Virus record (IMG/VR): IMGVR_UViG_3300020043_002259
Coordinates: 1-31,739 of that record
Reading direction: 5' to 3' (one strand)
Length of the DNA stretch: 31,739 bases
Source of the DNA: a virus
Taxonomy: Duplodnaviria; Caudoviricetes
Both the position numbers and the translations under genes were made by a program. Each line of letters starts with the position of its first letter. The stretch's first letter is position 1. Below are positions 807 to 3,542 of the stretch, piece by piece. Below the pieces are notes generated by a model. It did no database searches, had not been told where the DNA came from, and saw only the letters and a list, made by a program, of their open reading frames with translations.

Positions 807-834
807 AAAAAACCCAGCGGTTTAGGCTGGGTTT
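807..834 (-). terminator. Intrinsic terminator
   Basis: Minus strand AAACCCAGC-ctaaacc-GCTGGGTTT-TTT; paralogue of 423-450 with compensatory stem changes. Confidence 0.8.
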
Positions 835-873: not shown

Positions 874-1374
874 TCACTCCGCACACCCTTTCTTGGCGGC
901 GGGCTGGCGGGCAGCTTTGGCAACTGATTCAAGCGCGGCCTCAAGTCGTTGGCGGGCTTGGCGCTTGCCGGAGGCGGCATTTACGCCCTGCATTCCTTCC
1001 CAACGGGCAACTTCAGTTTCTGCCGCATCGTATTCGGGCGTGCGGTATTTCGGGCTTACCTCAAACCTTTGAGCCGCTGGATTCAAACGGTTGCCTGCCG
1101 TTTGAAGAATGTAAAAATCCTCAGGAAGATTGTAGGATTTTGCCACCTCTGCTGAATTGGTGCCGTATGCTGGCAGCGTCATTGGCGGCCTATCGTATCC
1201 AGCTGGCTTCTGGCTGGGAGCCTCGCTAGGCTCTGGCGCAGGGCTGGCCTGGCTTGTGGCTGCCTGGGCGGCGGTAGCTCGTTCGTCGCCTGTCCAACTG
1301 AGAAGGCCGTAGTGGTCTTCGCAGATGAGGAAGGATGAGGTATTCATGGATGGAAGGGTGTTGGTGGTGGTCAT
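874..1374 (-). CDS. Hypothetical early protein
   Basis: 166-aa ORF with an Ala/Pro/Ser-rich linker; alternative in-frame start at 1347. Confidence 0.65.
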   Translation of the reverse strand: MTTTNTLPSMNTSSFLICEDHYGLLSWTGDERATAAQAATSQASPAPEPSEAPSQKPAGYDRPPMTLPAYGTNSAEVAKSYNLPEDFYILQTAGNRLNPAAQRFEVSPKYRTPEYDAAETEVARWEGMQGVNAASGKRQARQRLEAALESVAKAARQPAAKKGCAE

Positions 1375-1396: not shown

Positions 1397-1439
1397 TTTA
1401 GGTTGTGGTTGGTAAAGTTCCGATGGGAAGTTGGCAGAA

Positions 1440-1652
1440 TTAGAACCTGCCTTCAGCTACCTGCTCTGCTTGCATGAGGTCGTATTCGTCAACCTTGTGG
1501 CCGTCTTCGGTGATCTCATAGGTGATATAAGCTCCCTTGCCGAATCGGCGTTCGACTGCCAAGGAGTGTTTGTGCTTAGCCTTTGCAGCAGCCTCAAGGC
1601 TGCGATGCTTGCTGATTGCGCGTCCGTTGAATGTATCGTTAAGTGTGAACAT
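1440..1652 (-). CDS. Hypothetical early protein (70 aa)
   Basis: C-terminal part of ORF 1440..1898. ATG 1652 (MFTLNDTFNG) follows the leader ...aacaacactATG, the same ending as before ATG 695. Confidence 0.7.
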   Translation of the reverse strand: MFTLNDTFNGRAISKHRSLEAAAKAKHKHSLAVERRFGKGAYITYEITEDGHKVDEYDLMQAEQVAEGRF

Positions 1653-1674
1653 AGTGTTGTTATTTGTTGTTTTT

Positions 1675-1726
1675 AGGCTCGTCAGTGACGGCATTACCGC
1701 CAGACTCCCTTTCGGGAGTTTCGCCT
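1675..1726 (-). ncRNA. Hammerhead ribozyme, type II topology
   Basis: Minus strand AGGC GAAA CUCCC gaaa GGGAG UC^ UGGCGGU aau GCCGUCA CUGACGA GCCU. Core CUGAnGA and GAAA, GUC cleavage triplet and stems I, II, III are all present. Predicted cut between 1703 and 1702; intergenic. Confidence 0.93.
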
Positions 1727-1737
1727 TGGGAGAGGGG

Positions 1738-2160
1738 TTACTTCTCACAAAAGAGGATGGCCTCAAGGTCTTTGGTGTCGGATGCTGCCCACGCTCCGCT
1801 AATTGCGAGGTTTTCCTCGCCTGAGGAGATTGGGGAGCATGAGAAAACTCCAGTGCAGGCCCCGTCCTTGTGCCACATGACCCTGCGGCGGGCAGCAATG
1901 GGGAGTCTGATGATCCCTTGGATCGTGCGCCCTTGGCACTGTCCGCTTACACGGACAAGCTCGGAAGGGAGCTTCCTAAGGGCTTCTACAGCCCAAGTCT
2001 TGGAGAATGGTACTGTGACTCCGTGCCTCAGGCAGGTGATATTCCCAGACTCGGCCACGCATGGGCCAAGGATGGGGACATGGCGAAACCAGGAGCCTGG
2101 TTTCTTTCCTGCCCTCCAGCGTGATCCAGGGCAAGGCATTTGGGAGGTGAGAGTATTCAT
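1738..2160 (-). CDS. Hypothetical early protein
   Basis: ORF 1738..2208. Likely start is ATG 2160 (MNTLTSQ), after the promoter and a CA-rich leader. Confidence 0.6.
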   Translation of the reverse strand: MNTLTSQMPCPGSRWRAGKKPGSWFRHVPILGPCVAESGNITCLRHGVTVPFSKTWAVEALRKLPSELVRVSGQCQGRTIQGIIRLPIAARRRVMWHKDGACTGVFSCSPISSGEENLAISGAWAASDTKDLEAILFCEK

Positions 2161-2192: not shown

Positions 2193-2234
2193 TCTCTGAC
2201 GCGCTCATAGTAGTTGAGTGTGGAAATAGTGCAA
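2193..2234 (-). promoter_or_regulatory. Early-type promoter TTGCAC-N16-TACTAT followed by GTCAGAGA
   Basis: -35 at 2229-2234, -10 at 2207-2212; same spacing and GTCAGAGA motif as 716-757. Confidence 0.7.
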
Positions 2235-2246
2235 CAACTAAAACGA

Positions 2247-3542
2247 TTATTTTTTCTGCCTATTCCTAGACTGCTCATTCTCAACGCTTTCTGCCTGCAA
2301 AAACTTGTAGGATTTGCCAATAAACCTTAGCGGACAGTCCCAAAATCGTTCACCTGTGCGGTTTTTGAGGCATTTTGCCGTCCTGACAGAATCGTCACCC
2401 TCTGTCTTGTCGAGCTGGATGATATGGTCAGCATCTTGGCCAATTGCTCTAGACTCTCGCAACTGACCTGCATCGTTAAGTTGTGAAGCGGTTAGAATGC
2501 ATTTTCCACTCCTAACAGCGGTTCGCTTAATCATTCTGCTGATTCCAGCAACGATTTCTTCACGGCTTCCCTTTGTAGGCCCATCTGATTCCATTAGCTG
2601 GATGTAGTCAACCAAGGCAATGTCGCAGTCTGATTGCTCAACATCAGCGAGAATGTCCTTAGCTGATGCTCCATGCGTGTCAACGATGGTTGCCTTCATC
2701 TTCGCAAGCCTTGCGATGCTTAGGCCAAATGCATCGTAGTCACCTCGATTCATCAAGCCACGCATCACCACTTGATTGTCCAAGCCTGCGTCACTGCAAA
2801 GGATTCGATAGGCTTGCTCTAGCTGGGTCATTTCAAGCGGGTAAATCCTGACGCTTTTACCCTGTGCCATTGCAGCTTCGCAGAAGTTCTGGATCAGAGT
2901 TGATTTGCCATCACCTGGCTTTCCAGCCACTACCCAAACCCTGCCTGGCTGCATTCCACCAGTCTTAGCGTCAATCATGTCAAAACCTGTGCTGATGCCT
3001 GGAAGTTTGCCACCAGACTCAACTCGCTTCTGGATTTCATCAACCAAGTCAGCGCAAAGAGTTCCTAGCGTTTTGCTTTCAAGCGGCTTGCCAACTACCT
3101 TTCCTGCGCCTTCAATTGCTTTCTCTGCTTCAAGAATTAACTCTGCTGTTGAATCCACAGGAAGCGTAACAGCTTTGCTGTAAATCTCAGCGGCAATCTT
3201 GTAAGCCTCTGCCTTGCGCTCCATCTCGGAACGCATTCTGAGGCGGTTCAAAGCCTCTTTGAAGATGGCAGGACTGGCGAACAGGGTGAAGACCTCGGTA
3301 AGCCTGTAAGCCCCTCCAATGTCCTCAAGAATGCCATCTGCTCGGAGCTTAGCCGTGATGCTTATCAGGTCAGGAGGAACCTGAGCATCAATGCTGGAAG
3401 CGATCTCCCTGAAGATGGGCCGATTCATTGGGCTGAACATCTCAGCCGAAATGCCGTTAAGTTGTGAAGCATATCTGTCTGGATGCTGAGCTAGGATGCT
3501 CAGAACCAAATCTTCGTCTGTTTTTCGTAGGTCGTTAGTCAT
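2247..3542 (-). CDS. dnaB: Replicative DnaB-like helicase
   Basis: Walker A GKPGDGKS, LVDYIQLM, SQLN, LRESRAIGQDAD, KNRTG and a DnaB N-terminal domain. Start 3542 forms an ATGA overlap with the upstream gene. Confidence 0.93.
   Translation of the reverse strand: MTNDLRKTDEDLVLSILAQHPDRYASQLNGISAEMFSPMNRPIFREIASSIDAQVPPDLISITAKLRADGILEDIGGAYRLTEVFTLFASPAIFKEALNRLRMRSEMERKAEAYKIAAEIYSKAVTLPVDSTAELILEAEKAIEGAGKVVGKPLESKTLGTLCADLVDEIQKRVESGGKLPGISTGFDMIDAKTGGMQPGRVWVVAGKPGDGKSTLIQNFCEAAMAQGKSVRIYPLEMTQLEQAYRILCSDAGLDNQVVMRGLMNRGDYDAFGLSIARLAKMKATIVDTHGASAKDILADVEQSDCDIALVDYIQLMESDGPTKGSREEIVAGISRMIKRTAVRSGKCILTASQLNDAGQLRESRAIGQDADHIIQLDKTEGDDSVRTAKCLKNRTGERFWDCPLRFIGKSYKFLQAESVENEQSRNRQKK

Follow-up and report, generated by a model that had tools for sequence, protein, structure and literature searches.

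Background

Natural type II hammerhead ribozymes cluster in prophages around single genes of changing identity, and in 2011 their proposed role was to cut long transcripts into gene-length messages (PMC3088659). Fourteen of the 18 consensus hammerheads tested there were active. Tandem hammerheads of prophages underwent cleavage in vitro and, for one arrangement, in E. coli as well (PMC3088659). The same study notes many hammerheads without known tertiary contacts and allows that other contacts may exist (PMC3088659), and reviews call the function of phage hammerheads open (PMC6155905, PMC6765202). For a different group, the extended hammerheads of solved structure, a U adjacent to residue 1.6 is described as taking part in an A-U Hoogsteen pair (PMC2553840), and a U seven nucleotides behind the cut is also stated (PMC9217987).

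Results

A type II hammerhead motif in a tailed-phage contig

The window, that is, the whole stretch of 31,739 nucleotides analysed here (IMG/VR record IMGVR_UViG_3300020043_002259, positions 1 to 31,739), is a contig of an uncultured tailed phage in which capsid, exonuclease, resolvase, SSB and DnaB families were found. In a search directed at the host, the best match of the capsid was at 29.6%; leaders that are rich in A and C and have no Shine-Dalgarno motif presumably suggest certain host phyla.

On the minus strand, positions 1726 to 1675 form a type II hammerhead in which stems I and III have closing loops and stem II is open. A preliminary description of the DNA had claimed an intact hammerhead of this type here, and the sequence reads as claimed, with the core intact and a three-way fold. 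All core bases are canonical (C3 U4 G5 A6 N7 G8 A9, G12 A13 A14, the pair A15.1-U16.1, and H17). The cleavage triplet is GUC, and from the consensus position the cut is predicted at 1703/1702 (C17 = 1703), 50 nt ahead of the ATG at 1652; both the predicted position and the length of the leader agree with what had been described. The parts of the motif, all on the minus strand, are as follows.

1675 to 1727, minus strand: type II hammerhead motif including the A 5' of stem II (sequence, fold, descriptor, orthologues)
1727, minus strand: A directly 5' of stem II, candidate Hoogsteen partner of U1696 (five of five orthologues; 62/63 examples with U at position 1.7)
1723 to 1726, minus strand: strand 1 of stem II in transcript order, pairing with 1678-1675 (fold; all four pairs invariant in five orthologues)
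1719 to 1722, minus strand: core G12 A13 A14 A15.1 (invariant in five of five orthologues)
1704 to 1719, minus strand: stem III, made of A15.1-U16.1, 5 bp and a GNRA (GAAA) loop (fold; hairpin strands 1718-1705 and U1704)
1702 to 1703, minus strand: predicted cleavage site after GUC (hammerhead consensus position)
1686 to 1702, minus strand: stem I, probably 6 bp with a 5-nt loop whose first base is U1696, position 1.7 (orthologues and class statistics)
1679 to 1685, minus strand: core C3 U4 G5 A6 N7 G8 A9, reading CUGACGA (only N7 varies in five orthologues)
1675 to 1678, minus strand: strand 2 of stem II (fold, orthologue pairing)
1653 to 1674, minus strand: A/C-rich leader without a Shine-Dalgarno motif, ahead of the 70-aa gene (sequence)

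The segment 1660-1745 has the three-way junction as its minimum-energy fold (-22.9 kcal/mol, z -2.07), and 7 of 200 shuffles of it fold equally well. A descriptor for all three hammerhead permutations found a single site in the whole window; in dinucleotide shuffles of the window a loose match arose in 2 of 150, and stems of 7, 4 and 5 bp in none of 150. Rfam at its gathering thresholds gave no match anywhere in the window. In E-value mode, RF02276 reached 33.1 bits (E 1.4e-4) under a gathering threshold of 37; in this comparison with Rfam hammerhead models, which the preliminary description had suggested, the alignment covers the full model. A pseudoknot of at least 4 bp between loop I and the 3' tail is absent, since the loop can form no more than 2 bp with either the tail or the 5' flank. 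Because the score is under 37 and this pseudoknot is absent, the motif is not filed as a curated member of RF02276, the pseudoknotted type II consensus. It is a further example of a known ribozyme class and an ordinary member of it: a real and well-conserved hammerhead motif that is probably active.

A variable cassette slot beside the DnaB gene

The motif lies between small genes, downstream of a replication gene. The elements of this neighbourhood, in transcript order, are listed here.

2247 to 3542, minus strand: DnaB-like helicase, constant neighbour to the left of the variable cassette region (phrog_19, E 1.6e-57)
2207 to 2234, minus strand: putative early promoter, with -35 at 2234-2229, a 16-nt spacer, -10 at 2212-2207 and a start at about 2200 (conserved in loci L153 and L154)
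1738 to 2160, minus strand: upstream gene of 140 aa, a small conserved family, accompanied by the ribozyme (12 homologues, 58-91% identity)
1440 to 1652, minus strand: downstream gene of 70 aa (homologues in L191, 87%, and L001, 53-55%)
1414 to 1436, minus strand: short conserved hairpin-like intergenic element at cassette junctions (blastn in L154; by eye in L153 and twice in L191)
874 to 1374, minus strand: second downstream ORF of 166 aa, a putative gene (ORF list)
810 to 834, minus strand: hairpin resembling an intrinsic terminator, which would end the unit (scan; the same element stands 62 nt behind the L154 ribozyme)

Behind the putative promoter the order is thus ORFs of 140, 70 and 166 aa, then the hairpin at 834-810. 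The preliminary description had set a promoter at 2193-2234. Conservation in L153 and L154 speaks for it, as does its resemblance to a promoter-like site at 757-730, which a consensus promoter scan of the window listed; the 2234-2207 site was itself not among the sites listed by that scan.

Thirty-eight DnaB loci were compared. Two are close, L153 and L154, at 97-98% identity, and the other 36 stand at 23-31%; within the fetched flanks the type II motif is absent from 37 of the 38. In L153 the whole block from the 140-aa gene to a 73-aa ORF is missing, and another small ORF is found instead. In L154 both the 140-aa gene and the hammerhead are retained, with the terminator following almost at once. 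Because gene content differs in these two loci despite their 97-98% identical DnaB, the region between promoter and terminator is a variable cassette slot. L153 does without the motif, which is therefore not essential to this phage group. A search with the terminator repeat for more members of the group returned only the L153 and L154 contigs. Among the sequencing runs listed as matching, none was from RNA. Three small-share runs consist of contigs, probably DNA, that cover DnaB and the promoter, not 1470-2111, and have no bearing on expression; joins across the cassette in the runs, with 27-letter sides at 85% likeness, were excluded as evidence.

Several repeats occur in and around the slot. 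The element at 1436-1414 recurs in L153 (8545-8562), in L154 (1315-1337, as a perfect 7-bp hairpin) and twice in L191. A 14-nt repeat is found at 2224-2211, 847-834 and 464-451, once in the spacer of the putative promoter and once immediately ahead of each terminator hairpin. L153 and L154 have it too, and it might serve as an operator or for recombination, or be what remains of a promoter. The terminator modules at 424-464 and 807-847 measure 41 nt each and are 85% identical. Because L153 and L154 have only one such module, the 73-aa ORF, with its own promoter-like site at 757-730, looks separately inserted. Two alternative start codons of the 166-aa ORF lie within a tandem duplication of 27 nt at 1392-1339. 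Finally, at 2208-2161 an upstream in-frame ATG inside the putative -10 box would give a 156-aa protein on transcripts reading through from the replication genes, and two homologues of the 140-aa protein (P0003 and P0004) are annotated with an extension of this kind.

The motif stays with the upstream 140-aa gene

The 140-aa ORF is a genuine gene, to judge from its 12 homologues; its protein had no Pfam or PHROG match and no usable Atlas match. Of ten representatives examined, five are full-length relatives without names. A structure model built from 14 sequences (pLDDT 63) gave no Foldseek match at E 0.001 in PDB or BFVD, and the best VIA Z was 4.0.

Outside the window, the gene was found in four distinct loci (L154, L191, L192 and L193, of which L191 and L192 share a record prefix); L194, L195, L198 and L202 are L154 again. 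Two candidates for more distant loci of the gene, L197 and L199, gave partial, weak matches with no hammerhead core near and were rejected as non-homologous. A hammerhead stands behind the 140-aa gene in all four other loci, and so in five of five with the window. Measured from the stop codon, stem II starts at 11, -1, 7 and 8 nt in L154, L191, L192 and L193, respectively, and at 11 nt in the window. In L191 (2649-2654), the A that flanks stem II and the stem's first base both belong to the stop codon of the 140-aa gene.

Among these five orthologues, N7 is the sole core change, and the U at the position of U1696 is kept in all. Twelve pairs were counted, with only the outer two pairs of stem III included, MAFFT having misaligned stem III in A4. 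All 60 of the 60 helix cells are paired, against 23-40% in slid controls, and two of the 12 pairs, both in stem I, are altered on both sides. Column shuffles gave a less decisive result, with 9 of 500 reaching the pairing score and 242 of 500 the number of pairs altered on both sides; the set consists of five sequences only, and these are close kin. One U-A pair of stem III is missing on both sides in L154 and L193, and the stem III loop is GAAA or GCAA throughout. The preliminary description had pointed to related phages, in which the core should be kept and stem changes compensated, and the relatives bear it out.

What follows the motif is not constant. The 70-aa gene stands behind it in two of the five loci, the window and L191; L192 and L193 have unrelated ORFs there, and in L154 a stretch of 62 nt, free of any ORF of at least 30 aa, separates the motif from the terminator. 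Because four further loci keep the motif while its downstream partner varies, it travels with the upstream gene, and we conclude from the sequence comparison that it is tied to the 140-aa gene and not to genes 1652 and 1374. The earlier proposal that the cut serves those two genes is weakened accordingly, as the 70-aa gene follows in two of five loci and the upstream gene is present in five of five. Simple co-inheritance of gene and motif as one DNA block can also explain the linkage.

Phage type II hammerheads as a class

A core pattern matched at least 150 viral loci, and about 590 stretches are estimated from 14 of 64 parts. Among the matches listed, 173 were distinct; 169 of these form all three helices and four were dropped. 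Removing identical cores left 160 examples in 105 sequence groups, grouped on shared 60-mers. The set is a biased sample because the search pattern fixes three stem II pairs and one stem III pair.

An ORF of at least 30 aa ends no more than 60 nt upstream in 146 of the 160 (opposite-strand control, 58), with a median of 2 nt from stop codon to stem II, and one starts no more than 70 nt downstream in 151 (control, 79). The median distance from cut to start is 57 nt, compared with 50 nt in the window. Up to five motif matches were found in one 4.2-kb locus. A tighter pattern matched nine loci, including the L154 contig and L206, where a stem I identical to that of the window is located between unrelated genes.

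Two observations from this survey concern other members of the class. A tail behind stem II that is complementary to the CUGANGA start follows N7 in its sequence, with 21 matching and two mismatched cases among the 160 (for example L005, L015, L016, L040 and L045, within loci L003-L152); being complementary to the core start, it could form a hairpin competing with the core. The window has no such tail. Weak blastn matches to the motif, with E values of 0.2-8 among those listed, occur in 33 records of the phage collection. Of these records, 30 are Streptomyces phages, among them cultured ones such as R4 and Hank144, and the matches fall mostly in unannotated gaps.

Stem I redrawn and a candidate A-U contact

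The preliminary description had drawn a stem III capped by a GNRA loop, an open stem II of 4 bp and a stem I of 7 bp. The first two hold. At the place of the seventh stem I pair (U1696-G1692), Watson-Crick pairing is found in only 26 of the 83 phage examples with a stem II of at least 4 bp, compared with 73-82 at positions 1-6. U1696-G1692 is therefore probably not a helix pair, and stem I would consist of 6 bp followed by a loop U.

This U goes together with a base on the other side of the motif. An A directly precedes stem II in 62 of 63 examples with U at position 1.7 (50 of 51 groups), compared with 66 of 97 examples without it (32 of 54 groups). A pseudoknot of at least 4 bp is possible in 6 of 62 members of the U1.7 class (permuted mean 10), and in 82 of the 97 remaining examples (permuted mean 57, maximum 67), the rows of all these statistics being related sequences. 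The upstream stop codon provides the A in 33 of 63 members of the U1.7 class, and the A is still there in 29 of the other 30. Stop triplets at the place of the flanking A end an ORF of at least 30 aa in 33 of 45 cases, against 11% of stop triplets generally. The window belongs to this class with U and A: it has U1696 and A1727, and no pseudoknot. Because these positions match the A-U Hoogsteen pair of the solved extended hammerheads, we redrew stem I and infer, by analogy, a U1696-A1727 Hoogsteen pair through which the ribozyme would dock without a pseudoknot.

In searches thin on subscription journals we found no description of a U-plus-A subclass of type II hammerheads or of its overlap with stop codons; the supplements of PMC3088659 may cover both, and the accessible portions of PMC13738344, PMC11300833 and PMC7761336 hold nothing on the subclass.

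Cutting of a shared early transcript as the proposed role

Kept with its upstream gene while the next gene changes, the motif likely cuts a shared transcript into separate messages. We consider it reasonably likely that the conserved motif behind the 140-aa gene would cut itself at 1703/1702 soon after transcription, splitting the early transcript in two. The RNA would fold during transcription and then cleave constitutively, docked through the U1696-A1727 pair with no need of a pseudoknot. Of the two products, the 5' one would measure about 500 nt (498 from the putative start) and have the stem III hairpin and a 2',3'-cyclic phosphate at its end. The 3' one, of about 900 nt, would begin with a 5'-OH, the stem I hairpin and the standard 50-nt leader. 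Terminal hairpins generally slow exonucleases, and ends of this kind would resist host RNases. The ribozyme would in effect work as a natural insulator, giving both messages fixed ends whichever genes are shuffled into the early cassette. Insulators of the RiboJ type work in this manner, fixing the downstream 5' end whatever lies upstream. Transcript processing, which the preliminary description had suggested, is thus the likeliest role, and the separation of messages is not a new proposal, having already been made in PMC3088659.

In naked RNA, the active fold is predicted at 0.02 with flanks of 300/150 nt and at 0.16-0.51 with shorter flanks. Long naked flanks disfavour the active fold, and fast co-transcriptional folding or ribosome cover must therefore be assumed. 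In line with constitutive folding, the penalty that the natural 60 nt upstream impose on the active fold is smaller than the median for shuffled flanks in five of five orthologues. Access to the start codon gated by cleavage was rejected, as the predicted access of the downstream start region (mean unpaired, 1674-1640) is 0.82 cut and 0.82 uncut, with no change.

As first proposed, the cut might instead exist chiefly to supply genes 1652 and 1374 with a 5'-OH message that has a leader of 50 nt. Its leader length is correct and near the class median of 57 nt, L191 has the same pair of ribozyme and 70-aa gene, and 151 of the 160 class members have a nearby downstream start. This reading nevertheless seems unlikely, since the 70-aa gene is behind the motif in only two of five loci and the motif of L154 is intact with no ORF of at least 30 aa before the terminator; moreover, L001 has a homologue of the 70-aa gene (53-55%) without a hammerhead, and a homologue of the 166-aa ORF is absent from all fetched loci.

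By analogy with glmS, whose cleavage leads to degradation by host RNases (PMC6765202), the cut could be a decay trigger that lowers or time-limits one product, rather than a protection of messages. Such a trigger would account for the retention of the motif in L154 a short way ahead of a terminator, because the cut would strip the terminator hairpin from the 140-aa message. We regard it as improbable: both new ends are predicted to carry hairpins, and arrays of motifs between successive small genes fit the separation of messages better than silencing.

A main use in cassette mobility appears very doubtful, whether the motif were a short repeat on which DNA recombines or the terminus of an RNA unit that undergoes cutting, joining and re-insertion. 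In its favour, a 3' half-hammerhead before the 140-aa gene of L191 (2160-2190) starts about at the cut site and lacks the GAAA and stem III half; the identical stem I between unrelated genes in L206 and the hypervariability of the region also fit. Yet the 5' half is missing at only 4 of 185 core sites in the fetched loci (by eye, a hairpin before the core is found only in L191 and perhaps L125, and most loci had been picked because they hold complete motifs). Conservation of core and pairing is not what recombination by itself would produce, a single copy is present in the window, and PMC3088659 reports, as data not shown, that no spliced or circular products were detected. The L191 half is composed of part of stem I, a CUGAUGA core, a stem II strand and an A/C-rich leader.

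Gating of cleavage by translation of the 140-aa gene, whose coding RNA would block the fold unless cleared by ribosomes, is scarcely credible and was rejected, for although the stop codon is very close to stem II (class median 2 nt) and holding the coding region single-stranded lifts the active fold, predicted at 0.00-0.43 in the five orthologues, to 0.45-0.55, masking any flank is expected to give such a rise, and natural flanks are no more inhibitory than shuffled ones (29-33 of 40 shuffled 60-nt flanks cost as much or more in each orthologue; class-wide p 0.92 over 62 rows and 0.33 over 93 rows, 155 of the 160 rows having enough flank).

Discussion

The locus offers a natural comparison, in which the motif remains behind its upstream gene even where another gene, or none, comes next. 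It directs attention to the formation of 3' ends and to insulation as much as to the release of a 5' leader. More tentatively, the motif may represent a distinct and common subclass of hammerheads with a 6-bp stem I, a loop U, a 4-bp stem II and no pseudoknot, docked by a Hoogsteen pair to an A of the 5' flank that often belongs to a stop codon. Such a subclass might act as the 3'-end module of a mobile cassette and as a natural insulator for the shuffling of early genes, and the half-motif of L191 would then be a scar of shuffling. The U-plus-A subclass would be a concrete answer for type II hammerheads without a pseudoknot, and neither point would surprise ribozyme specialists.

Several described systems are close to this one. 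The bacterial and prophage type II hammerheads (Perreault et al. 2011, PMC3088659; RF02276) share its permutation, its core, its setting among small, variable phage genes and its proposed role. Compared with their published consensus, the motif has no pseudoknot between loop I and the 3' tail, occurs as a single copy in the window and scores 33.1 bits, less than 37. HHphage of the haloviruses HF1 and HF2 likewise lies in an early phage transcript near a start codon and has a mapped 5' end near the cut (PMC3088659). It is, however, a variant of the core that lies at the head of a transcript, 13 nt upstream of a helicase gene, whereas the motif described here has a canonical core in an intergenic position.

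The extended hammerhead of sTRSV (Chi et al. 2008, PMC2553840) has the same U beside residue 1.6 and the same A before the stem II strand that leads to GAAA. In sTRSV this A is the last base of the GNRA loop closing stem II, whereas the motif in the window has an open stem II and takes its A from the 5' flank. Because its stem II is open and no GNRA loop supplies the A, the window motif works like the A-U extended hammerheads at most and is not one of them. With insulators of the RiboJ type (PMC12857756) it would share the proposed role, that of a self-cleaving RNA giving a fixed downstream 5' end. RiboJ-type insulators are engineered, whereas the element described here is natural, is tied to the 3' end of its upstream gene and would insulate, as we infer, the messages on both sides of its cut.
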